64,000 nt of DNA, taken from positions 45,626 through 109,625 of the forward strand of contig CBDDKY010000003.1 of NCBI GenBank assembly GCA_965230455.1. Reading direction: 5' to 3'. Source of the stretch: Gammaproteobacteria bacterium. GTDB taxonomy: Bacteria > Pseudomonadota > Gammaproteobacteria > CBDDKY01. Each line of letters starts with the position of its first letter. Within the stretch, counting starts at the first letter, position 1. The notes under the pieces were generated by a model, which did not search any database, was not told where the DNA came from, and saw only the letters and a program-made list of their open reading frames with translations. Of this stretch, positions 20,744 to 59,348 are shown piece by piece. Made by a program: the position numbers and the translations under genes.

Positions 20744-21047
20744 TTAACCCCTTGAAATTAGTGGCCTAGACAGGCATGCTTACTTTATTTTTCGCAACAA
20801 TGAGGATACGTTGCTCATGAAAATCAAGATGCGCAAAAGATTATCAGCCCCAGGCCTGCTTGAGGCTACCAAAACCCGATTTGCTCGTAGTGACAAAATC
20901 GCTTGGTAATTAGACCGACAGTTTGCCTTGGTAATGACAATAGTTCACGGGGTAAAAAAAGATTTAACCTAAAATAGAATATGTTAGGGAACAAAAAAAT
21001 CCTGCCGTGTCGCCGTATTGTGGATAATTTCTTCAGCATACATTGAT

Positions 21048-21424: not shown

Positions 21425-22537
21425 TCAAATAGATACAGATAGAATAGTTTTAAACAGTGGATCCAAGACTTGATAAGAGCCTTCTTTGTTGCAATAGACA
21501 TAGTCTCGTTGTTCTAATACCGTTAAAGATTGACTAATCGTTGCCCCTGACATTTGAGTCAACGTTTGAAACTCTCGCCCCCTTGGAGCAGCAGTCCCCC
21601 CGCTGCGTGCTAAAAACACCAATAGCTTGCGTTGGTTTTGGCTCAATAAATCCAGCTCACCAGAAACCTGAGAACGCTCTTCGATAGCATAGGCTCGCCA
21701 CAAACCTCTAACTGCTTCTGCTGTTCTATCGTCTAATTTCCACAGCCTAGAACATAATAAATTAACATAATAAGGGTGCCTTTCTGTACAATTAAAAATT
21801 TCTATCAACACCTCGGGTTCTAAAGGAACACCCCACGTTTCCACTGCTGCACGCTGTATATAAGCCTGATAATGCGCTTCGCTGATACGCTCTAAACCAA
21901 TGCGATCGCACAATTTATAAAAAGGACGATTTTTATCGCTAAATATTAATTGCAATAAATGCCTATTACTACCCGAAAAAATAAATGACATACTCTTCGA
22001 TGCCTGAGCTACTTGTCGTATCACACTCTCAATGGCACAATTTTCAGTTACCTCATAAATACGCTGAAATTCATCAAAAAATAAAATTAATTTTTGTTGG
22101 TATTTTTTACTTAAAATCTCAACACGCTGCAATATTTGCAGAATATTCGTGCTGGAATCCTGGCTGGGTTTATTAATTTCTACACTTAACCCTAGACCAT
22201 CAAAAGCCAACCTTATACTCAGCCCTGCAAACAAGTCCGCGGCTAATTTTAAAGCCTTTTTAGGACCTTTCTCTATACGAGTGATCAACTCACCAACGCC
22301 TTTTAAGATAATTTTTTCAATATCCGTTTCTGTAATTGCTGATAAAAAGTCAAAATGCGCATAATGAAATTGAACACTATTAATAGCATTAATGGCAAGA
22401 CTGGTTTTACCATAACGCCTTGTAGCGATTAATAGCGTTGGCCTAGATTCTTTCAAATTAAAGATTAATGCTTGTAGTTCTGCCTGGCGGTTGCAAAAAT
22501 TATCATCTACCGCCAGCGCTAAAGGAAAATAATCCAT
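21425..22537 (-). CDS. AAA+ ATPase of the archaeal-ATPase family (PF01637-like). Paralog 2.
   Basis: 'MDYFPLALAVDDNFCNRQAELQALIFNLKESRPTLLIATRRYGKTSL' parallels paralog 1. Walker B 'ILFFDEFQ'. Confidence 0.75.
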   Translation of the reverse strand: MDYFPLALAVDDNFCNRQAELQALIFNLKESRPTLLIATRRYGKTSLAINAINSVQFHYAHFDFLSAITETDIEKIILKGVGELITRIEKGPKKALKLAADLFAGLSIRLAFDGLGLSVEINKPSQDSSTNILQILQRVEILSKKYQQKLILFFDEFQRIYEVTENCAIESVIRQVAQASKSMSFIFSGSNRHLLQLIFSDKNRPFYKLCDRIGLERISEAHYQAYIQRAAVETWGVPLEPEVLIEIFNCTERHPYYVNLLCSRLWKLDDRTAEAVRGLWRAYAIEERSQVSGELDLLSQNQRKLLVFLARSGGTAAPRGREFQTLTQMSGATISQSLTVLEQRDYVYCNKEGSYQVLDPLFKTILSVSI

Positions 22538-27232: not shown

Positions 27233-27261
27233 TGCCCTCATTTATCACCCTCGCCTAGGGC

Positions 27262-30200: not shown

Positions 30201-30578
30201 AGCGGCAGCGAAGCAATCCAGGGTGGTAGGCTGACTTGTTCTATTTTTTCAGTGAACTAGAAACAGGTATGCCCTCTCTTGAACAAGGCAAGGCGTTATG
30301 TATTCAGAATGCACAGCTTCGTGGTTTAAACTTTCCTAGGATTTAATTTGGATTGCCGCGCTGCCGCTCGCAAGGACGAATAAGGTGGTGCGTAACAAGT
30401 TGATGTAGAATGGTTTTTTTAGGGTGTGCTTGAGCGTTCATCATTCTTTGTGAAAGCAAACAGTATTGAGTAATAAACTAACGGGTACGCCCGAAAAAAT
30501 ACACTCTCTCTCAGTAGCTTGCAGCCCCTCTTACTCGTCGTTGCGAGCGGCAGCGAAGCAATCCAGGGTGGTAGGCTC
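27262..30578 (-). repeat. Tandem array B of the same ~345-bp unit, about 10 units, in inverted orientation relative to arrays A and C.
   Basis: It is the reverse complement of the array-A unit, for example 'ggattgccgcgctgccgctcgcaacgacgaataaggtggtgcgtaacaagttg'. It starts about 30 bp after the priA stop and ends about 115 bp before the GNAT gene. Confidence 0.9.
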
Positions 30579-30692
30579 GAGATTTCTCACGTTAAAATCA
30601 CCCCCTTCTTTGAAAGTTTATGCTACAATTTCTTGAAATTTCAGAACTCATAAAGGACGTTGTCCATGCCTCTGACTAAAATATAGAAAATT

Positions 30693-31562
30693 ATGATAAT
30701 ACGCCTAGAAAAATTGTCTCGTCTTAGCATGAACCAATTCAATCAAATCAAAAAGTTGGCCGAGCTCTGTGAAAGAGTGGATGGGAGTCTAATCAAGCAT
30801 TACTGGAATATCCTGCAAGCACGCCGCACACGGGAGTTTGATGACTTTTGTTATTCGATAGATAATCGTTTAGTGGCACATTTAGCGACTTACGTCTTTA
30901 AGCCTCATGAGGCAGAAATCAGTGCAATGGTACACCCTCACCATCGACAGCAAGGGATTTTCTCACGCCTTTTTCAAGAGGCTCACTATGAATTAAAACA
31001 CCGTGGTATCCAACGCATGCTTTTGGTTTGTAAGCATGGCTTTACGCCCGCAGAAACTTGTCTAACCGGTTTGGGCGCTACTTATTCACATTCAGAATAT
31101 GAAATGGCTCTCGCGCCACGTGACTTTACACCCTCATCAAAAGAAACGAGTCTAACCATAAACCGCGCCGCCCCCAAAGATATTCCCTGTCTGGCGACAA
31201 TGGACAAAGATGCCTTTCAAACCTGCCCAAAAGAAGCTAGCGAAAACTTAAAGCACGCTTTGCAAGATCAGAAGAAAATTATTTACATCGCACTCAGCTC
31301 CACGGGCGATCCTGTTGGGAAAATACATTTCCGCCAGGAAACCGGTCACCAAGTGTTGCATGACTTTTGTGTGTTAAGCTCTCTGCGAGGTCAGGGGTAT
31401 GGCGAGCAAATACTGACAAAATCTTTGGAAAGTATTTTTAATACACCGTGCAAACGCGTTGTTCTCGATGTGGTTTTTGATAATGAGAGAGCGTTATCCC
31501 TTTACAAAAAACATGGCTTCTCTATCACAGCTGATTTTGATTTTTGGGGGCAAACAATATGA
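30693..31562 (+). CDS. GNAT-family N-acetyltransferase with two tandem acetyltransferase-like halves.
   Basis: An acetyl-CoA-binding type motif 'RQQGIFSRLFQ' in the first half and 'LRGQGYGEQIL' in the second half, with 'LYKKHGF' close to the C-terminus. Confidence 0.65.
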   Translation: MIIRLEKLSRLSMNQFNQIKKLAELCERVDGSLIKHYWNILQARRTREFDDFCYSIDNRLVAHLATYVFKPHEAEISAMVHPHHRQQGIFSRLFQEAHYELKHRGIQRMLLVCKHGFTPAETCLTGLGATYSHSEYEMALAPRDFTPSSKETSLTINRAAPKDIPCLATMDKDAFQTCPKEASENLKHALQDQKKIIYIALSSTGDPVGKIHFRQETGHQVLHDFCVLSSLRGQGYGEQILTKSLESIFNTPCKRVVLDVVFDNERALSLYKKHGFSITADFDFWGQTI

Positions 31563-32402: not shown

Positions 32403-33299
32403 TTAAGGCGCTTTTTGCGGATTTTTGCCTTTTTCTTCTGCTATCCGAGCTAGTCGCATCCCCATCAATGCGGCCTTGTGGTAATAAGTTTTCGCACGTG
32501 TCGCATCTTTTGTAACGCCCTCGCCAAACTCATACATATTCCCTAAGCGCACCAATGCCCACTGTTTAGAAAACATAGATACCTTTTTATCTTCTACGAC
32601 AGCCTTATACATACTTTTAGCTTTAGCAAAATCTTGTGGCACACCACTACCAAAGTAATATAAATTAGCTAATTCATAACGTGCATCACCACTGCCTTGC
32701 TGCATAGCTTTGGTGAACCAAACTTTAGCCTTCTTATTATCTCGAGGTAAAACAGGATCGTCCACATAACTTAATCCGTAATAAAGCTGTCCCGTAGCAT
32801 CACCTTGTTTGGCCGCCAAAGCGTACCAATGCTGCATGGCCAAATGCCATTGCTTTTTCTCATGCTTTCTGGTTTTTGGGTGTGCATGCGATGCCACATA
32901 CACTTGACCATAGGCTACCTGGGCCGCCGCATTGCCTGCTTTGGCGGCTTTCTGAAATTCATCAACGGCAAGCACCGGCTGGGCTTTAACACCTAAACCA
33001 TAAAGGTAAGCCACACCCAGCTGATATTGCGCCTTGGCATCACCCGCTTTAGCGGCTTTTTGTAGTGCTTTTGCATTCTCCAACAGCGCAGGCGTTTCTA
33101 TACCCACACGACACAAAGAAATAGCGTAACGAAACTCATTCTGTACTAATTTATCACCCTGCGCCGTTAATGCCTTCGCGCAATAAAGCTGGCCATGCTC
33201 AATAGCTCTCAAATAATCATCAAAAGACACAAGGTTAGAAGCAGCATGAGCTACTCCCATACTTACCAGCATCATCAGCAGTCCAACTAGTCGCTTCAC
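32403..33299 (-). CDS. Secreted Sel1-repeat (TPR-like) protein resembling EnhC/LpnE.
   Basis: Signal peptide 'MKRLVGLLMMLVSMGVAHA', followed by at least 6 Sel1 repeats such as 'AQYQLGVAYLYGLGV', 'ARYELANLYYFGSGVPQDFAKA' and 'ALVRLGNMYEFGEGVTKD'. Confidence 0.85.
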   Translation of the reverse strand: MKRLVGLLMMLVSMGVAHAASNLVSFDDYLRAIEHGQLYCAKALTAQGDKLVQNEFRYAISLCRVGIETPALLENAKALQKAAKAGDAKAQYQLGVAYLYGLGVKAQPVLAVDEFQKAAKAGNAAAQVAYGQVYVASHAHPKTRKHEKKQWHLAMQHWYALAAKQGDATGQLYYGLSYVDDPVLPRDNKKAKVWFTKAMQQGSGDARYELANLYYFGSGVPQDFAKAKSMYKAVVEDKKVSMFSKQWALVRLGNMYEFGEGVTKDATRAKTYYHKAALMGMRLARIAEEKGKNPQKAP

Positions 33300-38928: not shown

Positions 38929-38990
38929 CTTGTTGATCTGTCAACACTTTTCCAGATAGTTTTATTATTAAATTCTATTTGCTCTTTCAA

Positions 38991-39320
38991 CCTAAAATCG
39001 GCAGTCAATCGCGTCTTTTTGGTGTAACAGATTGATTTAGCCTAACATCAGCAGTCAATCGCGCTTTTTTGGTGTAACAGATTGATTTAGACAAGGAAAC
39101 TAAAAAGGGAAATAAGCAATGACTGCCACAGACATCCTGTCGCAAGGCTCTTGTTCTTATCAGTCCCAGCTCGGACATCCTGTCCTCGCGCTCACCAGAC
39201 TGCGATGTGCCACTGGCACATCGTTCTGGTTCACCCTTATTGGTGATGGAGACTTTTTTTGCTTTCTTAGATGAATCCAGATGTTATCGCCAAAAACGTG
39301 ATTTAACTGCTGATTTTAGG
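38991..39320 (+). repeat. MITE-like element family R2, copy 2, with a 50-bp tandem duplication of its left end.
   Basis: The reverse complement of 21048-21327. 'cctaaaatcggcagtcaatcgcg..gatttag' occurs twice in succession. Confidence 0.75.
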
Positions 39321-39481: not shown

Positions 39482-40453
39482 TTGATAAAAAAATCAACAG
39501 GTTGCTCTATGTATATGCTAGATATAAAATATTTTATCTTTGCCTTTATGTTAGTTGGGTATGCCAGTTCGAAATGTCATATTTTTCATATAAACACATC
39601 TGAATTACTAGTAAGGTTGTTATTTTATATATTAATGCCAATTATTTTATTCTTTGAAGTTGCAAGATTACCAATTGCAGAAACGCTATCATGGGGTTAC
39701 ATTAGCACCTACACTTGTGTCTACATCATAACATTTACACTTAGCGCAATAATTTCACAATTTTTTTTTAAGAGAAACACTACCAATACTCTTCTTAATG
39801 CTATGGCGTCTACACATCCTAATGCTGTTTACATTGCATTGCCTTTATTTCTCTTACTTTTTAAAACAAGTGCATTAATTGCCACTACCATTAGCCTACA
39901 AACCTGCTTTAACTTTTTTATGCTAGCTAAACTTGATTTATTAACCACGAAACATTCTATTAATAGCACCAATTTCTACATAATAGCACGAACCATTATA
40001 AGAACACCTATTTTAACTGGAATATTATTAGGTCTGGTTTTTAGTTTTTTTCATATTACATTTCCAGAATCTATTTATTCAACTTTTAACGCTATTACTT
40101 ATTTCACTTCATCTCTTGCACTATTTGCCTTAGGCTTATCTCTTGGCGCTTCCTCAGTAAAATTTGATAAACAACAAAGATTAGAAATATTAACTCTAGT
40201 TTTTTTAAAGTCACTATTACACCCACTGTTTGCTTTTTTAATAGGTCATTACGTATTTTCTTTAAATAGTAAAACATTAATAGCGGTTATTTTAATGGCA
40301 GCTATGCCAACAGCAAAAAGTTTATTCATCGTTGCAAAACGGTATGAAGCAAATACCAGTCGCATAAACACCGTTATATTCATAACAACCATTTTCTCAG
40401 CTGTTACAATTAATGTTATTTTCTTAATAGAAAGCTATTTATCAATCAAATAA
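39482..40453 (+). CDS. Auxin-efflux-carrier (AEC, Mem_trans-like) family membrane transporter with about 10 TM segments. The gene is very AT-rich.
   Basis: It is hydrophobic throughout. Two halves have similar topology ('ALPLFLLLF', 'FALGLSLGAS'). GC is around 30%, much lower than core genes. The true start may be Met12. Confidence 0.6.
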   Translation: MIKKSTGCSMYMLDIKYFIFAFMLVGYASSKCHIFHINTSELLVRLLFYILMPIILFFEVARLPIAETLSWGYISTYTCVYIITFTLSAIISQFFFKRNTTNTLLNAMASTHPNAVYIALPLFLLLFKTSALIATTISLQTCFNFFMLAKLDLLTTKHSINSTNFYIIARTIIRTPILTGILLGLVFSFFHITFPESIYSTFNAITYFTSSLALFALGLSLGASSVKFDKQQRLEILTLVFLKSLLHPLFAFLIGHYVFSLNSKTLIAVILMAAMPTAKSLFIVAKRYEANTSRINTVIFITTIFSAVTINVIFLIESYLSIK

Positions 40454-40454
40454 C

Positions 40455-40712
40455 TATACCCGTAGCGGTTGAATTTTAGGTGTTGCATGAAGCTTTCCAT
40501 GGAGCACGCTATTGTTTTAAGCGCCAGATGTCAATTAGATTTGAATGATGTTGCCCTAAAAAAGAGAATGGTAGCTATTGTAAGTCTTAGTTTTGTTATA
40601 GTAGGTCCCAAGAGAGTTCTACCCGACGATTTTTTTTAGGGCAATATCATTCAAAGGTGGTTGGCAGGTGGCAGGTGGCAGCTCAAAAACCTAAAATTCA
40701 ACCGCTACGGGT
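40455..40712. repeat. MITE-like element of about 255 bp with 23-bp inverted termini and nested palindromes. It abuts the ISAs1 left end.
   Basis: 'acccgtagcggttgaattttagg' at 40457-40479 and 'cctaaaattcaaccgctacgggt' at 40691-40713. Inner inverted repeat 'tgatgttgccctaaaaaa'/'ttttttagggcaatatca'. Triple 'ggcaggt' run. Confidence 0.6.
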
Positions 40713-40719
40713 ATATAGT

Positions 40720-41974
40720 CCAGGGCTGTCCCATTAAAATTATGCTAAGAGGGGTTGGTAAAAGTTCACTAAAGGATTACACTTCTTGCTTTACAAAACA
40801 AGGAGTTAGTGATGGCCAGCTCAAAGCAACCCGCCTTTCTTTATCATTTTGATAAGCTAGAAGACCCAAGAATTGAACGAAAGAAACTTTATCCGCTGAA
40901 TGAAATTTTACTCACTGTTTTATGCGCAAGCATTTGTGGCGCACAAAGCTGGCGAGATTTTGTAACGTTTGGCGAGGAAAAACTGGATTATCTTCGGCGC
41001 TTTCTGCCCTTTGAGCAAGGCATTCCATCAAAGAACACCTTCGCTAGGGTCATGTCAGCTTTAGAGCCAGAAGCTTTTAGAGCGTGCTTCATTGCCTGGG
41101 TTCAGTCTTTTCAATCAGCGTTAAAGGAAATCATTGCTATTGATGGCAAGTGTCTAAGAAAAAGTTTTGACGCTGCAGCAGGACAATCAGCTATCCATAT
41201 GGTGAGTGCTTTTGCCACGTCGAGCAAGTTAGTATTAGGGCAAGAAAAAGTCAATGAAAAGTCTAATGAAATCACAGCTATCCCAAAACTATTAGATTTA
41301 CTGGCTCTCGAAGGCTGCATTGTAAGTATCGACGCAATGGGTACACAGAAGAAAATTGCGAAAAAGATCCGCCAAAAAAAAGCGGATTATGTTTTATCCT
41401 TGAAAGGGAACCACAGTACGTTACATGATGATATTACTCTATTTTTATCGAGTGAAGTTGAAAAATTGTGTCAAGGCAAACCGCACAATATTACAGACCA
41501 ACACGAAGAGTGTGATAAAGGTCATGGACGTATTGAACGGCGTTTATGTTATGTAAGTGAGCGACTAGATTGGCTGACACAGAAGAAGGATTGGTGTGAT
41601 ATAAAAACCGTTGCCATGGTGGAGTCACAGGTCAACCAGGGGGCAAAAACGACAACAGAGCGACGTTATTTTATTAGCAGTATGGCTGCGAATGCAAAAG
41701 AATTAGCACAAGCCATACGTAGTCATTGGGCTATAGAGAATAGTTTGCATTGGGTTTTAGATGTCACGATAGGAGAAGATTTATCACGAGTGCGAAAAGA
41801 TAATGCGCCTGAAAACATGGCGATGGTTCGCCATGTTGTTTTAAATTTACTCCGAGGTGCCAAACCCCAGTTCCGAAAGGATATGAGCCTCAAGGGCCTG
41901 CAAAAGAAAGCTGGATGGGGTGAAAAAACACTCAATACCATTCTTATGCAGGAATTTTAATGGGACAGCCCTGG
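40720..41974 (+). mobile_element. ISAs1-family IS element (H-repeat-associated type transposase), apparently intact.
   Basis: 15-bp terminal inverted repeats 'ccagggctgtcccat' at 40720-40734 and 'atgggacagccctgg' at 41960-41974 bound the 383-aa DDE transposase ORF. Confidence 0.8.
40809..41960 (+). CDS. ISAs1-family transposase.
   Basis: 383 aa. The N-terminus 'PRIERKKLYPLNEILLTVLCASICGAQSWRDFVTFGEEKLDYL' matches the DDE_Tnp_1-associated domain. It has the DDE core and the C-terminal 'HWAIENSLHWVLDVTIGED'. Confidence 0.88.
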   Translation: MMASSKQPAFLYHFDKLEDPRIERKKLYPLNEILLTVLCASICGAQSWRDFVTFGEEKLDYLRRFLPFEQGIPSKNTFARVMSALEPEAFRACFIAWVQSFQSALKEIIAIDGKCLRKSFDAAAGQSAIHMVSAFATSSKLVLGQEKVNEKSNEITAIPKLLDLLALEGCIVSIDAMGTQKKIAKKIRQKKADYVLSLKGNHSTLHDDITLFLSSEVEKLCQGKPHNITDQHEECDKGHGRIERRLCYVSERLDWLTQKKDWCDIKTVAMVESQVNQGAKTTTERRYFISSMAANAKELAQAIRSHWAIENSLHWVLDVTIGEDLSRVRKDNAPENMAMVRHVVLNLLRGAKPQFRKDMSLKGLQKKAGWGEKTLNTILMQEF

Positions 41975-42007
41975 TATATAGTCTGAGGGACCGACACAAA
42001 TTCATTT

Positions 42008-42727
42008 TTAAAAACAAAGGGTTGAGAAATAATTATAGGTTTCTTGCTTTAAGAAGCTAAGCGCTTCCCTATATTGTTCATTGGTTATTTGATAACGCTT
42101 ATAAATTAATTCACAACCTAAAAAGAAACGCGATAGCACTCGCCTATGTTTCGTTGAGTTTGCTTGAAAGTGCCATTGTAAATTATTCATCTCACCAACC
42201 GTGCCTATCAAATAAGCAAATAAGGACGCTAAGGCTGCAATGATGAGTATCACCCGATATCGGCTTTTGCTCTTTGAAAAAGTCTCTCGAAGCCCAAGAC
42301 CATAGCGTCCACTTTTCATGTCACGGAACCCCTATTCTATACTCATCCGTAACTGATAAGCACCAACAATGTACTTTGCAGGAGCTTCTAAGGATGATAT
42401 TAATAACCAAGGTTCTATCACTGACGCTTTGTGGCGATTACTTTTTTGCGTGCGGCTAGGGCGACCTGTTCGCGTATGTGCATGACGTCCTTGGCCTGGC
42501 TTTTTATACAAGTAAAAGAAACCTGGAAATTCTTTTTGTCGACAATAATAGCCTTCCCCTAGATACTTAGGCTTCTTCGTCGCCTTACCCCACACATCAT
42601 GCCAATCGTCCGGTTGCAAATCCTCATCTGTAGAGATATTACTGTGCCCCCTCAGACGACCAATAAAGTCCCACCCTAATTTACGCACTAACGTGAACCA
42701 AGACAAACGAAACTCCACGTCTGTCAC
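42008..42727 (-). pseudogene. IS4-family DDE transposase remnant. It is frameshifted and N-terminally truncated.
   Basis: Two adjacent minus-strand ORFs, '...SLEAPAKYIVGAYQLRMSIE' and 'MKSGRYGLGLRETFSK...', rejoin by a frameshift into the IS4-type C-terminal signature 'YxxRWxIE..F(R)DMKSxxGL'. Perfect 26-bp inverted repeats 'tatatagtctgagggaccgacacaaa' sit at 41975-42000 and 43231-43256. Confidence 0.65.
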
Positions 42728-42825
42728 TAAAATGGGGCGACACGTTTCTGGAAGAACATGCTTTAGTTTATTTAAAAAGTAACGATATAAACGAACACTA
42801 AACTGTTCGCTTCGCTCATATATAT

Positions 42826-43256
42826 AGTCCCCGCAGTTGAAAGTTCGGGAAATTATTTGTTAATGTGATAACATAAGTTTTATATTTTAGCGCCTGGATG
42901 TTAGTCAGATTTGGACAATTTTTACTGAAAAAACGAGGATTTTAGCTATTCTAAATGACAAGTTTTTTCAGTAAAAATTGTTCAAAGATGGCTGGCAGAC
43001 AGACAGCTAAAACCCGAGGTTTCAACTGCGGGGACTATATACCCTGAGGGACCGACACAAAAAATTATTATAAAACAATCAGTTAAAGATCTATCAAATC
43101 AGGTGACTTAACAAGCTGAATTTAATAGTTAATCATATGTTACATAATCAGCTTTTTTATCCTTATTTTTAAGTAGCAAACGATAAGGGTTAAATCATAT
43201 AATCGTTACTCTTTGTTTTTTAAGGTTATTTTGTGTCGGTCCCTCAGACTATATAG
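42826..43256. repeat. Cluster of hairpin and MITE remnants inside the IS graveyard.
   Basis: 22-bp inverted pair 'tccccgcagttgaaagttcggg' (about 42826) and 'cccgaggtttcaactgcgggga' (about 43010). A perfect 19-bp hairpin 'caatttttactgaaaaaac ... gttttttcagtaaaaattg'. A third copy of 'ctgagggaccgacacaaaa' at about 43045 pairs with 43228-43250 to delimit a MITE of about 210 bp. Confidence 0.55.
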
Positions 43257-44373
43257 CAATTTCACTTCAAGATGCGAACACAGGTTTTTCTAAGATTTGA
43301 AAATTATCTGTTATTCTTGAACGCAATAATCTTTTCTTTTTGCCAATATGCCTAAAAAAATGTTTGATAGCCTCGGTAAAATCAGAAAATTTTTCATAAT
43401 ATTTATTGTAGGTAACTTGCTCATGCATAATCTTCCACAGTCGTTCTACTGGATTTAGATTGGGTGAATATGGCGGTAAATAATGTATGACTATCCCCAG
43501 CTCTTTAGCAAAATCCTGTACTAATCCACTACAATGGTAACCTACATTATCCCAAATAATGTGCACTTTATAATTTCCAGGGTGATGTTTACGCAGCCGA
43601 AATAAAAAGGATTGTATGCTTTCTTCATTGATCTTGTCGGATTGCTCATAAACAACTTTGTGATTAGTTAAGCAGACTCCGCCCATAAAGTTTAAGCGGT
43701 ATTGTCGAGCTGTTGTAGCAATCGGTTTACGCTCGCCTTTCATTATCCAACCATAAGCTAGCCTTGTTTGATGTTGTGGATGAACACTATCAACAAAGTA
43801 AATAGGCTCTTTTCTACCCGCTTTTTTCTTTAGTTTCTCATAATAGGTAATAAAATCTATTTGCTTAGTTTTATCTGCTTTAGCAGGAACTGCATTTGGT
43901 TTTTTATAACGAAAACCGTGCTGGTGTAACCACTTCGTCATGCCACTGATGGTGTATTTTTTATTAAAAGTTTTGCGTACATAAGCACAAATATCTTTTA
44001 CATAGCGGTAAGTGTATTTTTTTAAATGTGATAAAAGTAACTGCGACTGCTCTTGGTTAAGTTGACTATTGCTGCCGCCATTTTCTGGCTTTAATTTAAA
44101 TGTTTTAAAATAATCAGAAATATGCCGACGAATGGTTTCATCATCTAATAATAAAAGACGAGCAACTTCAGAGTAACTGTAGCCGTCATCGTAAGCTAAT
44201 ACAGCCTTGATTCGGTCGCAAGTCCGCTTGTCGCGCTCTTTTTTATGGCGCCGTTGCAGCTTTTCACGTTCTTGTGTTGTTAGCTTTCTATTCATAACGG
44301 TATTTGATCATATCCTGATGATTTATGCAACTTTTTTAAGTCAAATTCGCATCTTCAATGGCGAGTGCTATAT
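43252..44373 (-). mobile_element. IS630-family IS element, copy 1 (about 1.12 kb). The target is a TA within 'tatata'.
   Basis: The ends 'tagcaatttcacttcaagatgcg' and '...cgcatcttcaatggcgagtgcta' form imperfect terminal inverted repeats flanked by TA. Copy 2 at 61978-63099 is more than 99% identical. Confidence 0.85.
43267..44295 (-). CDS. IS630-family (Tc1/mariner-like) transposase.
   Basis: 342 aa with an N-terminal HTH, DDE/D core 'IYFVDSVHPQ' and 'IHYLPPYSPNLNPVERLW'. Confidence 0.9.
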   Translation of the reverse strand: MNRKLTTQEREKLQRRHKKERDKRTCDRIKAVLAYDDGYSYSEVARLLLLDDETIRRHISDYFKTFKLKPENGGSNSQLNQEQSQLLLSHLKKYTYRYVKDICAYVRKTFNKKYTISGMTKWLHQHGFRYKKPNAVPAKADKTKQIDFITYYEKLKKKAGRKEPIYFVDSVHPQHQTRLAYGWIMKGERKPIATTARQYRLNFMGGVCLTNHKVVYEQSDKINEESIQSFLFRLRKHHPGNYKVHIIWDNVGYHCSGLVQDFAKELGIVIHYLPPYSPNLNPVERLWKIMHEQVTYNKYYEKFSDFTEAIKHFFRHIGKKKRLLRSRITDNFQILEKPVFAS

Positions 44374-46348
44374 ATTCAATGCCTATATCTCGTGTTCTTT
44401 TAATAAAATCTTCATGGCCATCTTCATGATTAAAATAGTAAGGCGTTAGAGGAATGTCCTTCTTCTTCATTTCTGCTAAAATTAAATTACTGAGTTTTCT
44501 ACCTAGACCTAATTTTTCAGCACAGAGATAAATATGGTTTAAATAGTAAAAGGTGATGCTTATTGACTCATAGCTTACTGAAACTTTTTCGCTTCCACCT
44601 TGTACCATTTCACCCAGCAATTCTCGGCTAATAAATTCTGCACCATGAGCGCCAGTCTTGGTTAGCGTTTTATGAGACAGGGCAGCAAGCTCTGGTATAA
44701 GTCTATCCTGCATTTCTTTGAAAAATACTTCCAGGCCTTCCTTCTCTCTTCTAAATTTTTTCTTAGTATTGTTAGTTTTAGGATAAAAATCCACAAGCAT
44801 AGATAAAAGTAGCATCAGCCGCATGCGAATTAAAAACCATCCAAACTGAAAATGAAGGCTATCTTTTTCCTCAAAAATTTCCATACGCTTTTCATCACAG
44901 CGTTTAATTAATGAAAAAAGCTTATCGAAAATATTTGCGATATTACTGCCATGCTTTGATAAAATAATAACAGAGTTTTTATAAAGACTTAGCAAGTTTA
45001 CAGCCGTATTTCGCAAAAAAGCATTTCCCATATTATCTGCAGTTTCTCGTATATTTTTTTCTATATCAAGCAAGGTTGCCTCAATATATAAATTAAAAAG
45101 TTCTTCGTATAAAAAACTAGGCAGTAAACTATTAGTAATATGTGGTGCTAGAAAAATCCTCACGGCTTTCAAGGCTTTTTCAAAAGCATTTATTGCTTCT
45201 TTATTTGATTTTTTTAAGCCTTTCATGCCGTTTTTTAACTTTAGCAACAACTGGCTATATGCTTTTTCATTGAATTTCTTTACATATCCCTCAGAAAGGG
45301 CAGATAGCTCATGATTTCTGCGTCCTATTCGTCTCTGGTAACCTTGAAATTTTTCACCCAAAAAAGCTTTTGTAAAAATTTTCTGCATGTCAGGGTCGCT
45401 ACCAGAAAACAATTGCTCTTCATCAGACTGTGTTAAGGGAACATGCTTCTCTAGGCGGGCAATATAATTACCCATAGGCTCTTCTAATTCCACAGGGGTT
45501 TTATCTGCTAAGCAAGCAATGCCTTTATAGCTTGCAAATAATACATTATGTTCAATAAGCACAGGCAAACTAGCATCCAGCCATTCGCCTTCCCGTTTAA
45601 TAGCCTGCTGAAGTTCTATTTGGATTTTTGTTGCCTCATCGCCTGCAAAGTTTAATTGACTCAATTGTCTTTCTTTTGCTTTAATCTCTGCCCGGAGCGC
45701 TGTCAACTGTTCGGCAACATATCCCTCAACCTCCTCGGCAAACTCAAGGTTGAATTTAAGGAACTCAAAACAAGCCGTCAAGTCTCTATTAAAGGATACA
45801 AAAAGCAGCTTACTTAGCATGACCTCACATAGGCGTAAGCATCTCACTAAAGGCCCAAGTTCAAGCGCCGCTTTTTCTTTGCTACTTTCATAGGCTTTAC
45901 CCGCCTCAAAAAATATTTTTTTCCAGAGTGCATTAAATAGATTCACCAAAAAGCTAACATTTAGCTTTTTATCCAAATACATCCCAAAAGAAACTAAAAC
46001 GCTGTTCAGTGCAGATTCTGCCCAACTATCCTCATACGATGAGTTTAGCGGATTGTACTTAGCCTTGATAACAGCCATATAAGCCTGAATATCCTTAAAG
46101 ACATCATAAAAAGGTTTGAATATTGAGGAATGTTCATGTTCAATGCAGTAGTTATCAAACGCCTCATAGAATGTATCGCTCTTACTCAGGCAAATATCGA
46201 AGGTCTTATCATCGATGGTATAGCTATGCATTAGGTCTTGCAGTAGCTGCTCTTCCTCAGATAACGTGGTACTTTCCGACTCATTCACCACCGTATCTGT
46301 TGCTGCTTGTTGAATATTCATGCCCCATAACCTCCTGATTAAAAACAC
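44336..46348 (-). CDS. 670-aa alpha-helical protein of unknown function. Its 3' end is interrupted by IS630, and the last 12 codons plus the stop come from the IS terminus.
   Basis: The ORF crosses the IS630 right boundary at about 44373. The tail 'YIALAIEDANLT*' is encoded by the IS terminal repeat. There are no transmembrane segments and no known motif. Confidence 0.6.
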   Translation of the reverse strand: MFLIRRLWGMNIQQAATDTVVNESESTTLSEEEQLLQDLMHSYTIDDKTFDICLSKSDTFYEAFDNYCIEHEHSSIFKPFYDVFKDIQAYMAVIKAKYNPLNSSYEDSWAESALNSVLVSFGMYLDKKLNVSFLVNLFNALWKKIFFEAGKAYESSKEKAALELGPLVRCLRLCEVMLSKLLFVSFNRDLTACFEFLKFNLEFAEEVEGYVAEQLTALRAEIKAKERQLSQLNFAGDEATKIQIELQQAIKREGEWLDASLPVLIEHNVLFASYKGIACLADKTPVELEEPMGNYIARLEKHVPLTQSDEEQLFSGSDPDMQKIFTKAFLGEKFQGYQRRIGRRNHELSALSEGYVKKFNEKAYSQLLLKLKNGMKGLKKSNKEAINAFEKALKAVRIFLAPHITNSLLPSFLYEELFNLYIEATLLDIEKNIRETADNMGNAFLRNTAVNLLSLYKNSVIILSKHGSNIANIFDKLFSLIKRCDEKRMEIFEEKDSLHFQFGWFLIRMRLMLLLSMLVDFYPKTNNTKKKFRREKEGLEVFFKEMQDRLIPELAALSHKTLTKTGAHGAEFISRELLGEMVQGGSEKVSVSYESISITFYYLNHIYLCAEKLGLGRKLSNLILAEMKKKDIPLTPYYFNHEDGHEDFIKRTRDIGIEYIALAIEDANLT

Positions 46349-46481
46349 TTAAGTTGGCTATTATCTTTCCAAGGTTACATTTTGTAAAGCTTATGACATT
46401 TGTTGTGCCTTGAGCCTCTAGTCTTATCCCAGCTGAACTGCTATCCTAGACCCTTTGATGTTCATACGTAATATAATACTC

Positions 46482-51276: not shown

Positions 51277-52458
51277 TTAGGATGCCTTAGGCTGCACCGA
51301 ATAGGTCTTTAAACGTCGAGCAAAAGCCGCTAATACTTCAACGCCCGTTGCTTCAGCCTGACGACACCATTCTTGTAGCGCGTCAATCAACTCTTTTTGT
51401 GTTGCCGTGGTACGCGCCCAAATAGCTTGTAATTTTTGGCGATACTGATAGGCTAGCGCTAATTGCTCACGCCCTGATAACGCTGCGTTAATGGTTTCTC
51501 TGGCCTTGGCATCCACCAATTCATCGGCAGCAATCAGCGCACGCTTGGAACGACAAAATAATTTAGAAGCATGACCTTTTAATTTCGCTTTTTCTACATC
51601 GAAAATAGGCAGCATAACTTCTTTACTGTAGCGCGATAAAATTTGGAAACGGTGACGCACTAAAGCTGTCAGCGTATCCACGTCAATTTGCGTTTTGTCT
51701 TTGATGACGACTGGGTGAGTTGCCACACGACGAACCTTGACTAAATTCAGTAGTGAAAAGATTTTAATATACAACCAACCAATATCAAATTCCCACCACT
51801 TCACTGAAAACTTTGCAGACGTACCGAAGGTATGGTGATTGTTATGCAACTCTTCGCCGCCGACGATAATACCGATAGGCCAGAGGTTCGTCGCTGCATC
51901 GGTGCACTCATAATTACGATACCCCCAAAAATGCGCTAAACCATTAACAAGGCCCGCAGCAAATAAGGGAATCCAAGCCATTTGAATAGCCCAAACTATA
52001 ATACCCGGGAAGCCTAATAGCGCCACATCAAGCACAGCCATCAACAAAAGACCTAACGCAGGATAACGCGTGTATACGTTGCGCTCCATCCAATCGTCAG
52101 GCGTACCTTTACCAAATTTTTCCAGGGTGGCTTTATCTTTACAGGCTTTGCGATACAATTCCGCCCCCTGCCACATCACCGTGCGCAAACCCAATAGCTG
52201 TGGGCTATGGGGGTCTTGTTCTGTTTCACAGTGGGCGTGATGTTTACGGTGAATGGCAACCCATTGCTTGGTTTCCATACCCGTGGTTAACCACAACCAA
52301 AACCGAAAGATATGCGATAAAAAGGGATGCATGTCGATGCCACGATGGGCTTGGCAGCGATGCAAATAAAGCGTAACCGCCATGACCGTCAACTGCGTCA
52401 TCGCCAAGGTCAATATGACATAGCCCCAAAAAGAAAGATTTAGCAATCCGTAAAACAT
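51277..52458 (-). CDS. Membrane fatty-acid (acyl-CoA/acyl-lipid delta-9 type) desaturase.
   Basis: Histidine boxes 'HRKHH', 'HRLHH-like' and 'HNNHH', with 4 TM helices. The start is placed at Met23 (RBS GAGGA). The first 22 codons of the ORF-track model begin at GTG and are read through the R4 repeat. Confidence 0.85.
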   Translation of the reverse strand: MFYGLLNLSFWGYVILTLAMTQLTVMAVTLYLHRCQAHRGIDMHPFLSHIFRFWLWLTTGMETKQWVAIHRKHHAHCETEQDPHSPQLLGLRTVMWQGAELYRKACKDKATLEKFGKGTPDDWMERNVYTRYPALGLLLMAVLDVALLGFPGIIVWAIQMAWIPLFAAGLVNGLAHFWGYRNYECTDAATNLWPIGIIVGGEELHNNHHTFGTSAKFSVKWWEFDIGWLYIKIFSLLNLVKVRRVATHPVVIKDKTQIDVDTLTALVRHRFQILSRYSKEVMLPIFDVEKAKLKGHASKLFCRSKRALIAADELVDAKARETINAALSGREQLALAYQYRQKLQAIWARTTATQKELIDALQEWCRQAEATGVEVLAAFARRLKTYSVQPKAS

Positions 52459-52503
52459 GAGGTTTTCCTCGTCTAAAGTAAAATAAGCCCTAAACACCAG
52501 GGG

Positions 52504-52642
52504 CTGTTGACAATTCATTTTCACGCTGCAATTTGAATAAAACGGGTGCGAATTTGCGTGTATTTTCGTTACTATAGTTCACTATGCCGCCTCAAATAAA
52601 CACAAATTTGTCCCTCGCAGTAATTCCCGCTGGGAATTGCTG
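52504..52642 (+). repeat. Repeat family R4 copy (about 115 bp) fused to a REP-like palindrome 'cagtaattcccgctgggaattgctg' at 52618-52642.
   Basis: Identical stretches occur at 19142-19188 and, in reverse complement, at 39325-39452. The palindrome family also occurs at 12543, 35464 and 35853. Confidence 0.7.
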
Positions 52643-53627: not shown

Positions 53628-56600
53628 ATGCGTGGATTTTTGATAATGCTTGATTTTTTGACGCCCCGTGGCTATTTTACTTACCAGCGCCCTACTGAAG
53701 ACAATAATAACCCCAACGTTACCTATCGGGATGAGCGTGGTAATGAAATTGAGTCTACGTTTCGTTACGTTGGCCCCCTTAAGGGGCGAGGCCAGGGTGA
53801 GCCTGGTTTCTTTCTGCAGCAACTAGACCCTGATAATGCTGTTGTTGGTAAAACACTTGCCAAATTTGACTTAGAAGCAGCCATTCAAGAAGCGGTTTTA
53901 AACGCCCTATTGCCCGACGCTGAAAACCCATTACCTGAGGAACTCAGATCCAGCGTTAACTGTGCCAAACTCACGGCACTGCACAATGGGAAGGAGCGTG
54001 ATGCTGGCGGAAAATTCATCGGGCTGGCTTCTATTCAAAAAGCTGTAGACGGTCAAGATATGGCCAAATTCATGGTTAGCCCAGAGGGCCGCGCTCCTCA
54101 AGCTTTCTTACGAGAGGTGGATAAAGCCTACGCTTCTTCATTAGATAATGCGCGTGATGCACTATCTGAAGAAGCCCAGTTCCATTTAGCCGCCGCCCTA
54201 CTGCAATCAGAATTTGCCAATGATGAAAGCAAACACATTGGGCAATTTATGCTGCTCTTGGATGCGCGTGGCCAAATAGAAAAGGTCGTGCGTATTGATT
54301 TGGGCGCCGCTTACCGCTACGCCTGGGCTAAACAGCTACACCATGCCGACTCTCCGCTGAAAGCCTCTATTTTTTATAATCACCATAAGGTGGTCAAAGG
54401 TGAAGCCCTGGGCCTGGAGACTGTTTTCGGCAGCGACCCACTTGGAAAAGACTACACCAGTTCACAGCTGCGGCACCCTGGCATACGTGCTAAATTTCTC
54501 TCACTCGCCCTAGAAAGACCCGCGCTCACCGAAGCGACTATCATCCAACGCTTCACAGGCCTCTTTGAGCAAATACCTGGCGATGCAGTACAACAACAAA
54601 GAGAAGCGTTAGTCGGATTTGCTGCGGAATTTTATAAAGATGCCTACGACCCAAATCAAGCTAAAGCTGAAGATGAAGATGGGTTCGAGCTCCTCGACGA
54701 CTTTAAGTTTAATGAGCATTACAAAAAGCTACCCAAAGCTTATAAAGCGTGGAAAAAAATCCATAAAGATCTCATGGACGCCCAAGAGGCTCGGGAAAAA
54801 GCCATCGCGGACATTACTCAAGCTGGAGCAAACCAGGAAGCAGAACAACAAGCTCGAAATGAATTCAATACTGCTGAGAACATGATACAGGATTTAACGG
54901 GAGCGAAAAATGACGCGCTTATCGCCTGTGAAAACATCTTACGCAAGATTTGTCTGCCGGACAGTGAAAGCACCGGTCCATTTGTCGATGATGAGCTTAA
55001 TCATCACCAGGAAGGGAGCATCGCACACGGCTTAGCACAACATGTCGCCGAGGCGACCCTGTCCAAACACCAGGCTATCGTTAACCATGCACAGCTTGAA
55101 ATCACACGCTGCGTTAACGGCGCCAATGTGGGCCCAGCTATTAGTAACCTATTAACAACACCAGCCTCCACGGCGCCTCTTACTCCCGAACAGATTGACT
55201 CATTAACAGCTAAACACACCCAGCTGACAGCCCGCAAAAAATCTCCCCTTGTCAGAAAACTCATTGAAAACCGTCTTACCCTTAACCGATGCTATCATGA
55301 GGACAACACACTCAAAGCAGCATCGACCGCCGTCATTACCGATTTAGGCCTTCAGGGCGAAAAACGGCGCGAGCTGTTAAAAACCGCGAAACAAGCCTTG
55401 AAGTCCATTGCTCATTTGACGCCTGAAGCTAAAACAGCACTAAAAAACATCAATAATGCGTTAAGACAGCGTCCGGGCTCAGAGCCACACTTGTATGACT
55501 TACTGTCTAAACGCGTTATGTTTGATATATTAGACCAAGCCACCTTGATGGCTGAAGCGCCACAACGTAAAGAAGAGGTAAAAGACAAAAGAAAAATTCC
55601 TTGGCAAAAAGAAGCCCCCACTTACAGCGCAGCACAAACACTGTTTCAAGCTTATTATAAGTCGTTTGACCTAGAGGGTAGAAACGCTTTAGCTGAAATG
55701 CAGGATGAAGAAATAGAGGTTCGTCAAGCCTTCGTAGAGTCTAGCTATACTTCTCTACTCATGTCGCACTATGCACGGCAATTACCCCAACGGGTTCCAG
55801 CCGTTACAGCAACTGCCCGCGAAATCCTTGCTATTTTCTTCCCTGATGATAAAAGAATGGACGACGATGCAAAAAATCAGCATATTAGCACCAACGAGCT
55901 GGATAAGCTCCCCCTTGAGCACCTTCATTGGGTAGCCAGCCGTGCAGGCGCTGCTTGGTGCATGGAACATAGAACAAAAAGCGCCCTGTTTAATCAGCAA
56001 GTAAAGCGCTTAGACTTTATTAAAGTCCATAAGGGCTGCCACCAGCTTTATGCAGCCATTAAAAAGTTGCCCCCTCATTTGCGCGCCTATCCCGATACAG
56101 AGCTACGCCGTATTATTGATGGACTTAGAAACGGCGCTGAAAACTCAAAGCAATTGGAAGCACAGCTTGCTGGCTTAATCCATGCCACCGAAAAAGCCCC
56201 GGCTGCCGCACTGACTCAGTGGACGCTTAATCTCCTAGAGGGCTTGGAACAAACACCACGTATAGCGCAAGCTATTGAACATATACGCGCTGAAGACAAC
56301 GCTACCCCACTGCACGCGCTCCTCAAGAAAACGCTGATTACTCACGTCATGGATGAATATCCTGAGCACGGCCAAACACTGTGGGAGCTTCAACAACAAT
56401 CGCTTACCTTGGCTCGCGTAACCACTGATGACGAACGCGTTCAAGAGCTAGCCACCTTGGGGGCGAAATACCCAAACTTTCGGGATCTGCAAGAGGCTGA
56501 TCAATCACTTATCGCCCAGTATTATCGATTATTGCAAGATGAAAACCCTCCCACCGTAACCCAAGGTGCTCGAGCCATTTTAACTTCGCTTACCCGCGAG

Positions 56601-59348
56601 GCGGCCCTTACCACTAGCCCAGAACAGGCTTACTTTATTGCCTCACGTGCAGGGGGTTCCAACTGGTACAACAACCTACCTGCGGGTGATAATGCTGACG
56701 AACAAGCCCGCATCCTTACACTTAAAGGGCTTTTTGTGCAAGGCCAGCTCTTGGCTTCCCATGAGAATTTATCGCTACTGATTAACAAGCTTCGCGCCTT
56801 ACCCACTATAGGAGACACATTTGCGGACCATATCGATAAACTCAGCACCAGTCTGGGCTTATTGCTTTCACTACCCAATAACGCTGACACAGAACAGAGC
56901 ATCCAAAACCTTATCAGACAAGTGGACAAATACAGAGCCTTTCTTGACGATGCGGAGAAAAACCCATTATCTTCTGCTGATATCGAGGAGATGATGCAAG
57001 CTTTTGATTTGGATGAAGGGGAAATGACGTCCCAGCATGCCCTGACGCCCTTACAGGATAAAAGCTTACACCCATTTCTCCCCAACGTGGATGCACAAAC
57101 AGATGGTTCACCGGCAAAACAGCTCATGGGTATCGCACTCATCCAACATATCCATGATTTAGCCAGAGCAAAAACAACGCCTCAAGCCCTTTGTCGGCAG
57201 GCTAAACAGCTGTTACAACAAGTCCCTGCTGCATTTTCAGACCGAGCTAAACCCATTATCGCACAGCTTGACGCTGAAGCTCGCCGCCCCGACGATCATG
57301 CCAAGCATCCCCAGGCTATTATCCCGGCTAGCCTCATCTTCGATATGCAGCAAGAAGAACAAGCTGAAAAAACCCATGATATAGCCGCAGGGTTAGAAGC
57401 CTTATCGGCTTATGGCAGAGAAGCGGGCTACCTTGATGAAGGCGATGAACAGGTAGATGAAGAGGCATTAGCAGCAGCAGAAGAACAGCGAGATATACGC
57501 AAAGCAGAGGAAAGAAGCCTTATCGATGAGCGAAGAGAACAATCTCCCGATGAGAAATTACTCCATCTCTATGAACGCGAGCTTGACAATGATGAGCACG
57601 AAGACGTTGCCGAATGCGCCCAAGCGGCGTTGAGAGCATTTTTGCGTGATATGGCTGCCAACAGGCCAGCTTCTTTACAACAATTCAGTGTGGCCGATTT
57701 TCATTTTGTGGCCTCTCGTGCCGGCAGCCGTTGGATCAATGACAATCGGGATACTTATCCTCTTTTAGATACTTTTCTAAAGCGTGTGATTGTCATTATG
57801 AGGCCTAGAACAACACGAGAAGCGCTGCCTCTCTTAGGCCATACGCCGGCGCTACACGAATTATTTGTAACCATTAAAGGCTTACCTCCAGGCGCAGTTC
57901 GTAGACACGCTAATGCTTTATTGAATGCATTAGCCGATGACAGCCTTGTTGGTGAGGAGGAAAGGCTTCAAGCAGAACACGTAGCGCAAGGGCTTGCCTC
58001 GTTTTTGAAAGCTTATCAAAAGAACCCTCACTTTGGCATGCAAGAACTGTTGTCGTTCAAAGCGCTTTTCCAGCTGCAACCTAATGCAGCCATCTTCCCT
58101 TCTGAACCGGAACAAAAACGCCTCACAGGGCTTCCCGCGTCTCCTCACGATTTATTTCAACGAGAGGGTTTAACGCCGACCCAGCGATTGGCTAAAATTT
58201 TCATGAATGTGCTTTACCAAAAAGAGCGCGGTGTTCCCATCAGCCCGCGCGTTGCAATCGAAGCGCTTAACCACGATAACTCTCAATTCGGTCAGTTTGC
58301 GCGCGGTTTTATTGCCACACCAGCGCCACAAAGGGCTCGGGACATCGATAATGAAAAATATCCTACCTACAGCAGGGCAAAGCAAGGCATTGACAACCAA
58401 AGGGAGGATGACGCCAATAGAACAACATTTATCAGGCAGGAAGAAACGCTGGTAGGCCGCTTGAGCACCCATAAAGAACAACAACTCGCCCTACTACGCA
58501 ATGAATTTCTGGCGCTTGATTTGGCTGTTGAAGAAATGACCTTAGCAAATGCTAGCACAGGAAACGTACTCCAACGCTTTGATGCCATAACCAACCGAGT
58601 CGGTGACACACTGCAAAGACAATGCAAGCAAGAAATAGCCCGATGTGTTTCAGGGCTGGGACATGATAACAACGGTCGCCACCCAACGGCGGGTTTCCCA
58701 CCTAAAGGTTTATTAATTGAAGGTTGCGAAGAGCGCTATTTGAAACCCACGGTGGATGCTTTTAATGCTAAATGCGCTGAATCACGCCAACACTTAGAAA
58801 CTAAAGTCAATATCATGCGCCAGGCAAAAGTGCAAAATAAATTGACGGGCACCTCCGTGCCTCGCGCTGCTGAAGAAAGTGGTGCGTCGGCTAACTTTAG
58901 CCTCACCGGCCGCGCCGCACAAGCACGCCAACAATTATTAACCGCAACAACCATCTCGGTCAATAAAGCATTCATTACCATTCACCCCGGTGGCCGAATC
59001 ACCGGGCTAGATCAATTCAGTGATACAGAGCTACTCAGCTGGCTACGTGGTAAAACCCGCGTCTTTGGTTTTAAGGTGAAGCAAAACTTTGCTGAGGTGC
59101 TCGCGGCGGCTGGTTATAGAACCTTTAATCTGAACATGATTCGCCACGCCGACCTTAAAATGCAAGCAGCCTGCCACCACGCAGCTGAAGAAGGACTGCG
59201 ACGTTATAATAAGGGCAGACCCGTTTCTGAGCGCGTTTCACTTTTGCAAAACCAGGAAGCTGGCAATGCTCCCCTGCCTAATTTTGATAGAGATAATAAT
59301 GAACCGGTTGACAATCATCCAAGGCCTAGGCCTACACTGGTACATTAG
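53628..59348 (+). CDS. Giant (1906 aa) alpha-helical protein, paralog of the 12643-17697 product, and a candidate translocated effector.
   Basis: A single 5.7-kb ORF. It has three copies of the 'F/W-VASRAG-xxW' motif ('LHWVASRAGAAWC', 'AYFIASRAGGSNWY', 'FHFVASRAGSRWI'). The C-terminal ~350 aa are homologous to the 1684-aa protein. There is an acidic, coiled-coil-rich segment at about residues 1230-1300. Confidence 0.8.
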   Translation: MRGFLIMLDFLTPRGYFTYQRPTEDNNNPNVTYRDERGNEIESTFRYVGPLKGRGQGEPGFFLQQLDPDNAVVGKTLAKFDLEAAIQEAVLNALLPDAENPLPEELRSSVNCAKLTALHNGKERDAGGKFIGLASIQKAVDGQDMAKFMVSPEGRAPQAFLREVDKAYASSLDNARDALSEEAQFHLAAALLQSEFANDESKHIGQFMLLLDARGQIEKVVRIDLGAAYRYAWAKQLHHADSPLKASIFYNHHKVVKGEALGLETVFGSDPLGKDYTSSQLRHPGIRAKFLSLALERPALTEATIIQRFTGLFEQIPGDAVQQQREALVGFAAEFYKDAYDPNQAKAEDEDGFELLDDFKFNEHYKKLPKAYKAWKKIHKDLMDAQEAREKAIADITQAGANQEAEQQARNEFNTAENMIQDLTGAKNDALIACENILRKICLPDSESTGPFVDDELNHHQEGSIAHGLAQHVAEATLSKHQAIVNHAQLEITRCVNGANVGPAISNLLTTPASTAPLTPEQIDSLTAKHTQLTARKKSPLVRKLIENRLTLNRCYHEDNTLKAASTAVITDLGLQGEKRRELLKTAKQALKSIAHLTPEAKTALKNINNALRQRPGSEPHLYDLLSKRVMFDILDQATLMAEAPQRKEEVKDKRKIPWQKEAPTYSAAQTLFQAYYKSFDLEGRNALAEMQDEEIEVRQAFVESSYTSLLMSHYARQLPQRVPAVTATAREILAIFFPDDKRMDDDAKNQHISTNELDKLPLEHLHWVASRAGAAWCMEHRTKSALFNQQVKRLDFIKVHKGCHQLYAAIKKLPPHLRAYPDTELRRIIDGLRNGAENSKQLEAQLAGLIHATEKAPAAALTQWTLNLLEGLEQTPRIAQAIEHIRAEDNATPLHALLKKTLITHVMDEYPEHGQTLWELQQQSLTLARVTTDDERVQELATLGAKYPNFRDLQEADQSLIAQYYRLLQDENPPTVTQGARAILTSLTREAALTTSPEQAYFIASRAGGSNWYNNLPAGDNADEQARILTLKGLFVQGQLLASHENLSLLINKLRALPTIGDTFADHIDKLSTSLGLLLSLPNNADTEQSIQNLIRQVDKYRAFLDDAEKNPLSSADIEEMMQAFDLDEGEMTSQHALTPLQDKSLHPFLPNVDAQTDGSPAKQLMGIALIQHIHDLARAKTTPQALCRQAKQLLQQVPAAFSDRAKPIIAQLDAEARRPDDHAKHPQAIIPASLIFDMQQEEQAEKTHDIAAGLEALSAYGREAGYLDEGDEQVDEEALAAAEEQRDIRKAEERSLIDERREQSPDEKLLHLYERELDNDEHEDVAECAQAALRAFLRDMAANRPASLQQFSVADFHFVASRAGSRWINDNRDTYPLLDTFLKRVIVIMRPRTTREALPLLGHTPALHELFVTIKGLPPGAVRRHANALLNALADDSLVGEEERLQAEHVAQGLASFLKAYQKNPHFGMQELLSFKALFQLQPNAAIFPSEPEQKRLTGLPASPHDLFQREGLTPTQRLAKIFMNVLYQKERGVPISPRVAIEALNHDNSQFGQFARGFIATPAPQRARDIDNEKYPTYSRAKQGIDNQREDDANRTTFIRQEETLVGRLSTHKEQQLALLRNEFLALDLAVEEMTLANASTGNVLQRFDAITNRVGDTLQRQCKQEIARCVSGLGHDNNGRHPTAGFPPKGLLIEGCEERYLKPTVDAFNAKCAESRQHLETKVNIMRQAKVQNKLTGTSVPRAAEESGASANFSLTGRAAQARQQLLTATTISVNKAFITIHPGGRITGLDQFSDTELLSWLRGKTRVFGFKVKQNFAEVLAAAGYRTFNLNMIRHADLKMQAACHHAAEEGLRRYNKGRPVSERVSLLQNQEAGNAPLPNFDRDNNEPVDNHPRPRPTLVH

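Follow-up and report, generated by a model that had tools for sequence, protein, structure and literature searches.

What becomes of a gene when mobile DNA takes over its 3′ end? The question is raised by a long minus-strand open reading frame (ORF) in 64,000 nucleotides of a Gammaproteobacteria bacterium (assembly GCA_965230455.1, contig CBDDKY010000003.1, positions 45,626 to 109,625), a stretch referred to below as the window. The maximal frame, from 46348 to 44336, comprises 670 amino acids counted from the GTG at 46348, and we found it just as the original prediction had described it. It runs into a copy of an insertion sequence (IS) of the IS630 family, and its product, for which our searches returned no relative, is called here the orphan protein. 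We consider the ORF to be a lineage-specific gene that was chimerised at its 3′ end by a chain of mobile elements joined at TA dinucleotides, with IS630 as the outermost of them. We put the probability of this reading at about 85%.

The junction between the orphan gene and IS630

The boundaries of IS630 were fixed by aligning the two copies that the window holds. The segments 43250-44373 (copy 1) and 61976-63099 (copy 2) differ at 2 of 1124 positions, and the identity between them ceases exactly at 44373. Only one way of parsing the ends, TAGCAA...GTGCTA (TAGCA...TGCTA), yields TA duplications around both copies. The element is ~1.1 kb long and carries imperfect terminal inverted repeats of ~26 bp, its ends being TAGCAATTTCACTTCAAGATGCGAA and TAGCACTCGCCATTGAAGATGCGAA. 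Its transposase matched the NF033545 profile with 218.5 bits (cutoff 100) as well as the Pfam domains DDE_3 (4.8e-34) and HTH_33 (1.6e-15), and the spacing between the WDN and NPVE motifs fits the DD34E pattern. In transposase type, terminal inverted repeats and insertion at TA with a 2-bp duplication, the element thus belongs to the IS630 family. For IS630/Tc1 elements, TA targeting with duplication of the TA is an established rule (PMC2170065). A comparison of the IS630 DNA with plasmid records revealed neither a match nor a close relative.

The element resembles other members of the IS630/Tc1-mariner group, such as IS630 and ISY100, in its DDE_3 and helix-turn-helix transposase, its inverted repeats and its TA flanks. 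Unlike in those, the element here ends in TA-GCA..., which creates TATATA together with the duplication, and further elements with TA flanks have accumulated at these sites.

The last residues of the ORF, IALAIEDANLT, and the TAA stop that follows (44371-44336) fall within the block common to both IS630 copies. A tblastn search found the same tail again at copy 2 (63097-63065) with 100% identity; its overlap with the IS terminus is therefore real and no chance resemblance. The original prediction had traced the final 12 codons and the stop to the IS630 terminus, and this was borne out, with 11 codons plus the stop in place of 12.

At the junction, the native minus-strand frame reads ...ATT GAA TAT A.., the tyrosine codon being composed of the native TA and the first base of the TA duplication (the peptide spanning native and IS-derived residues is DIGIEYIALAIEDANLT). 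The gene therefore did not stop at this point and its native stop is missing. All three frames that enter the right end of IS630 meet a stop within 36 nt. It had also been claimed that the original C-terminus was lost. That much stands as regards the native stop, which is gone, and the present tail and stop, which belong to IS630; how far the loss extends does not follow from the junction and is considered separately below.

The event is recent, since the two IS630 copies are 99.8% identical. Their transposases differ by a single residue, A251V (43544 in copy 1, 62270 in copy 2), which directly follows the second catalytic Asp (copy 1 reads WDNVGYH and copy 2 WDNAGYH); the copy 1 transposase may be impaired. 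In the left flank of copy 2 (61966-61985), a 345-nt repeat unit breaks off directly behind GCGAGCGG, and the expected continuation CAGCG... is not found beyond the element (63097-63160), where an IS21 IstB gene lies instead. The flanks of copy 2 are thus non-contiguous, which makes the site a rearrangement junction or the end of a repeat array and no simple insertion.

The start of the orphan gene is more probably the ATG at 46321 than the GTG from which the maximal frame was counted, which gives a protein of 661 amino acids. This is also where the sole database entry for the protein (P0001, 661 amino acids) begins. A Shine-Dalgarno sequence is correctly placed for this ATG, and a promoter-like site sits in the divergent spacer shared with leuS (Table 1). 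The codon log-likelihood is +0.205 bits per codon in the orphan frame and −0.42 and −0.70 in the other frames; the signal is positive in its own frame only and falls among the values of the window's conserved genes. The ~650 native codons contain neither a frameshift nor a stop. Codon bias specific to its frame, a translation start signal and more length than chance would allow mark the ORF as a protein-coding gene.

Table 1. Features of the orphan gene, the IS630 copy joined to it and the nest of mobile elements downstream (window positions)
Feature	Position	Strand	Remarks
Promoter-like site, TTTACA-17-GATAAT, 10/12 matches	46360..46388	-	consensus match only; upstream of the orphan gene
Shine-Dalgarno sequence, AGGAGG	46331..46336	-	spacer of 9 nt to ATG 46321; taken from the sequence itself
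Native part of the orphan gene, ~650 codons, 36.7% GC	44373..46321	-	
IS-derived ORF tail: TA duplication, 11 codons (IALAIEDANLT), TAA stop	44336..44372	-	right terminal inverted repeat of IS630
IS630-family element, copy 1, ends TAGCAA.../...GTGCTA	43254..44370	-	TA duplications at 43252-53 and 44371-72
IS630 transposase gene, 342 amino acids, intact	43267..44295	-	NCBIfam and Pfam
IS4-family element, both own ends kept	41977..43251	-	
ISAs1-family element	40720..41974	+	transposase 40809-41960; inserted at the MITE A / IS4 junction
MITE A, 257 bp, 26-bp perfect terminal inverted repeats TATACCCGTAGCGGTTGAATTTTAGG	40457..40713	.	
Auxin-efflux-carrier family transporter gene, convergent neighbour	39482..40453	+	profile positions 12-331 of 336

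We propose the following course of events. A chain of TA-targeting elements has come to fill the space from the 3′ end of the orphan gene to the convergent transporter gene, and a recently active IS630 copy has joined the gene at the TA inside TATA, after codon 649/650. Translation thereby extends 11 codons into the terminal inverted repeat and halts at the first in-frame TAA, yielding a chimeric 661-residue protein with a foreign tail and without its native stop. The junction and the chimera can be read off the DNA itself; as for transcription, read-through and functional status, we infer that the gene would still be transcribed from its own promoter and that transcription could plausibly continue into the co-oriented transposase gene. 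The ATG of the latter lies 40 nt downstream of the ORF stop on the same strand, and no terminator-like site was found between the two. As its 650 codons contain neither frameshifts nor stops, the gene would either still work with its exchanged tail or have become a pseudogene only very recently.

Several points weigh against this account. The expression of the orphan gene is a prediction from sequence signals, and no orthologue that would give its native length or tail was found in the collections searched. Moreover, TA is present at every IS630 junction, so that a simple insertion is indistinguishable from a junction formed by recombination between two IS630 copies; TA flanks are weak proof of a simple IS630 insertion, the dinucleotide as such being uninformative. 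Copy 2 lies in the same window at its non-contiguous junction, so rearrangements do occur. Finally, the native intergenic DNA between the convergent genes is gone entirely, which is unusual without a deletion.

The IS nest and the extent of the C-terminal loss

Everything downstream of the ORF had been described as an IS graveyard, and the interval 40455-44372 does consist entirely of mobile DNA. Its left limit is marked by the transporter gene, whose C-terminus is complete and whose stop is intact. The TA that flanks the first miniature inverted-repeat transposable element (MITE A) begins 1 nt past this stop codon. The ISAs1-family element that follows is bordered by a perfect 8-bp duplication, TATATAGT, at 40712-19 and 41975-82.

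The IS4-family element is internally decayed. Fragments of its transposase match positions 105-335 of the 340 in NF033591, the first ~104 residues being missing, and its interior holds a second miniature element, MITE D (42825-43037), together with a stray, diverged IS4 left end (43040 to ~43100). When the three IS4-type ends were aligned, the end at 43251 proved to be the counterpart of the left end at 41977. Neither of the element's own ends is thus lost, and the deletion lies in its interior, with none into host DNA.

The TATATA strings at the junctions D/C, C/IS630 and IS630/gene are each composed of an element-end TA, the TA of a shared duplication and another element-end TA. The remaining junctions also consist of TA only: MITE A is bordered on its left by TATA, and X/D reads TATATATA. 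The terminal repeats of MITEs A (40457-40713) and D have the TATAG...GTTGAA layout of IS630 ends, and each of the two carries a long internal palindrome. Both may be non-autonomous derivatives of the IS630 family, which would explain their place in the same TA chain.

Nests of this kind, along with gene-IS chimeras, are known from the IS-expanded genomes of recently host-restricted bacteria, in which IS families and MITEs are likewise inserted next to or into each other. As there, the older copies are internally decayed, and the reading frame of a neighbouring gene continues into an IS end up to the first stop codon. In contrast to the usual nests, none of the spacer between the convergent genes has survived replacement, and the unrelated elements MITE A, IS4 and IS630 are separated by TA only.

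How much of the orphan protein was lost in the process? Beyond the left end of IS630 we found the right end of IS4 and not the continuation of the orphan gene that a simple insertion would leave. Our best estimate is a small to moderate loss, with ~45% for at most 7 codons (a SYLIDK tail) and ~55% for a larger one through an IS-adjacent deletion; these figures rest on priors and not on a decisive observation.

The larger loss is a serious contender, if a little short of even odds. An IS-mediated deletion would have removed the spacer between the two genes, the terminator and a considerable portion of the protein's C-terminus, and the ORF would be a fresh pseudogene. Such a deletion could have come about through recombination of an IS630 copy next to IS4 with a second copy inside the gene, or through an IS4 adjacent deletion. 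Apart from TA, not a single non-mobile nucleotide is left between the two convergent genes, and the native frame has no stop at the junction. Rearrangement is also evident nearby, in the missing N-terminus of the IS4 transposase and the non-contiguous flanks of IS630 copy 2. In an AlphaFold2 (AF2) model covering the C-terminal 266 residues, the predicted local distance difference test (pLDDT) falls below 50 for the final 28 residues of native origin (~623-650) and for residues ~558-590, which could mean that a domain is incomplete; the model is, however, too poor to judge domain completeness. Against the larger loss, the IS4 deletion is internal and spared both ends of that element, every junction fits a simple TA insertion and the 650 remaining codons are free of lesions.

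One version of such a deletion, namely a single recombination between two IS630 copies that removed the right part of IS4 along with the 3′ end of the gene, was rejected: the right end of IS4 still adjoins IS630.

It is also quite conceivable, at somewhat under an even chance, that very little was lost. The convergent genes would have abutted or overlapped, the TA elements would have entered, one after another, a single TA directly behind the stop of the transporter gene, and 0-7 codons would have been exchanged in a protein that stayed functional. When every mobile element is excised, TAAC-TA-TATTCAAT remains, and the minus-strand frame reconstructed across it ends in GIEYSYLIDK and a stop, or, with other TA counts, in GIE or GIEYIVI and a stop. 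Insertions into a single TA and nothing else would account for the structure; 0-7 codons would then have been replaced, and the likeliest native ending would be GIEY-SYLIDK. The proximity of the nest's left edge to the intact stop of the transporter gene, a distance of 1 nt, agrees with this, as do the TA-only junctions between the elements, the ISAs1 element with its perfect duplication, the otherwise intact ORF and its normal expression signals. Minimal loss nevertheless requires that the orphan gene once overlapped the 3′ end of the convergent transporter gene by ~24 nt, an uncommon arrangement, and at least 3 independent insertions into the same TA, and the reconstructed tail has no orthologue to confirm it.

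The orphan protein and its possible function

With 36.7% GC as opposed to 45-48% in the housekeeping genes, the orphan gene belongs to a low-GC island (~38.3-46.4 kb) that is bounded by an amino-acid permease gene and leuS. Situated at the edge of this accessory island next to leuS, it was probably acquired horizontally.

Searches for relatives were consistently negative. A word-indexed search of 5.8 billion clusters and an exhaustive phmmer search of 1.84 billion representative proteins both returned the orphan protein itself and no homologue. No relative was found in peptide-pattern scans of GTDB genomes and JGI metagenomes, nor was the native 3′ end of the gene found in an exact 24-nt scan of metagenomes. 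The protein has no match in Pfam, NCBIfam, PADLOC, PDB sequences or PDB folds, and tblastn revealed neither a paralogue nor the missing 3′ piece within the window.

The LeuS protein of this genome has a best public identity of 63-64% and lies at roughly the same distance (60-64%) from many groups of Gammaproteobacteria. As a consequence, the lineage cannot be demonstrably assigned to Legionellales. None of the 80 leuS loci that we fetched encodes a relative of the orphan protein. By these values the genome is phylogenetically isolated; it belongs to a poorly sampled, IS-rich gammaproteobacterium.

The protein itself is acidic (76 kDa, isoelectric point 5.8) and is predicted to be all-helical and soluble, with no signal peptide, transmembrane segment or internal repeat. 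The full-length single-sequence AF2 model was unusable (pLDDT 40.7) and the model of the C-terminal 266 residues was poor (pLDDT 56.5, predicted template modelling score 0.57). A Foldseek search against the PDB yielded only generic helical bundles with E above 0.8.

The original prediction had also raised the possibility that the protein is a secreted effector and that the IS removed its C-terminal export signal and left a near-full-length protein that is no longer exported. We regard this reading, of which a type IVB substrate would be one example, as unlikely. That the protein is an ORFan, helical, acidic and devoid of a signal peptide or transmembrane segment is in keeping with an effector but provides context only, and the same direction is indicated by the location of its gene within a low-GC island. 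A further parallel comes from Coxiella burnetii, in which some strains carry truncated alleles of Dot/Icm proteins (Ank proteins, CinF, Vice) that are likewise near-full-length ORFs with the C-terminal end missing or replaced, in IS-rich, host-restricted genomes (PMC13104383). In the part of that work that cites Voth et al. 2009, C-terminal truncations of Coxiella Dot/Icm effectors are reported to influence export and are considered likely to prevent it, which would lend some weight to a similar outcome here. The Coxiella proteins, however, are proven type IVB substrates with intact alleles, while the orphan protein is unrelated to them and known from its sequence alone.

The window offers some context of its own. 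Three giant ORFs have no Pfam domain: 6819-9998 (+) with 1059 amino acids, 12643-17739 (-) with 1698 and 53628-59348 (+) with 1906. The last of these matches LepB_N at E=1.3e-4 with 22 bits, below the cutoff of 25, and has no sequence relative in the PDB. A Sel1-repeat protein is encoded at 32403-33299. The giant orphan ORFs, the Sel1-repeat protein and the IS load may be taken as weak hints that are reminiscent of host-associated bacteria, and the giant ORFs, the Sel1-repeat protein and the sub-threshold LepB_N match speak to some degree for an effector. On the other side, the 64-kb window contains no secretion-system genes, the lineage is not demonstrably Legionellales and the protein does not resemble a known effector family; neither such a family nor a eukaryote-like domain emerged in Pfam, NCBIfam, PADLOC, the PDB or the 1.84 billion representatives.

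A bolder version of this idea is more doubtful still. According to it, the ORFan would be the founder of a new family of helical effectors or host-interaction proteins in a deep, unsampled gammaproteobacterial lineage, seen just after its tail was swapped and with its promoter driving the IS630 transposase through read-through, so that IS activity would be coupled to the expression of an accessory gene.

Lastly, that the ORF is no gene at all but a chance open frame in AT-rich accessory DNA is hardly credible: the absence of any homologue or domain match would suit it, but an open frame of 2 kb in DNA of 37% GC is extremely unlikely to arise by chance, the codon signal is positive in this frame only and on par with that of conserved genes, and the ribosome-binding and promoter-like sites are correctly placed.

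Other features of the window and significance of the locus

Three non-coding arrays of 345-nt tandem units occupy positions 1 to ~1750, 27180-30720 and 59460-61975, the middle one in the opposite orientation. Neighbouring units match at 88-92% (Tandem Repeats Finder). Each unit contains a long hairpin with arms of ~40 nt, CTTAYTCGTCYTTGCGAGCGGCAGCG..GCAATCCA and its complement (RNA-fold z-score −5.5); the arrays have no Rfam match and contain no ORFs.

Shorter repeats were also observed. A 47-nt sequence containing TTGACA occurs at 19142-19188 and 52499-52545, 33 kb apart, with 98% identity, and two copies of a 50-nt unit stand in tandem at 38986-39085, a third and diverged one lying at 21043-21092. 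Both kinds of sequence could be additional small repeats with a mobile or regulatory role.

Two low-GC (38%) ORFs that lie 1 kb apart, 19297-20433 (-) and 21425-22537 (-), both match ATPase_2 and AAA_14, and neither has a significant PADLOC match. The fatty-acid desaturase gene at 51277-52524 (-), in which Pfam reports an ISL3-transposase domain at the C-terminus, was considered as a second gene-IS chimera and rejected, as NF049918 and NF049919 identify this part as a DesA/ISL3 alpha-bundle tail, which is normal for the DesA family.

What the orphan gene and IS630 form is an ordinary chimera of gene and IS that borders an IS nest, and as such a new instance of a well-known phenomenon. For annotation, this means that the deposited 661-residue protein is a chimera of a gene and an IS and merits a flag as possibly truncated. 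Should it be true that the protein is a secreted effector, or should the genome of a sister lineage permit the insertion to be dated and the loss measured, the finding would weigh more. As it stands, the locus is a single local illustration of genome decay in a gammaproteobacterium that is rich in ISs and phylogenetically isolated.

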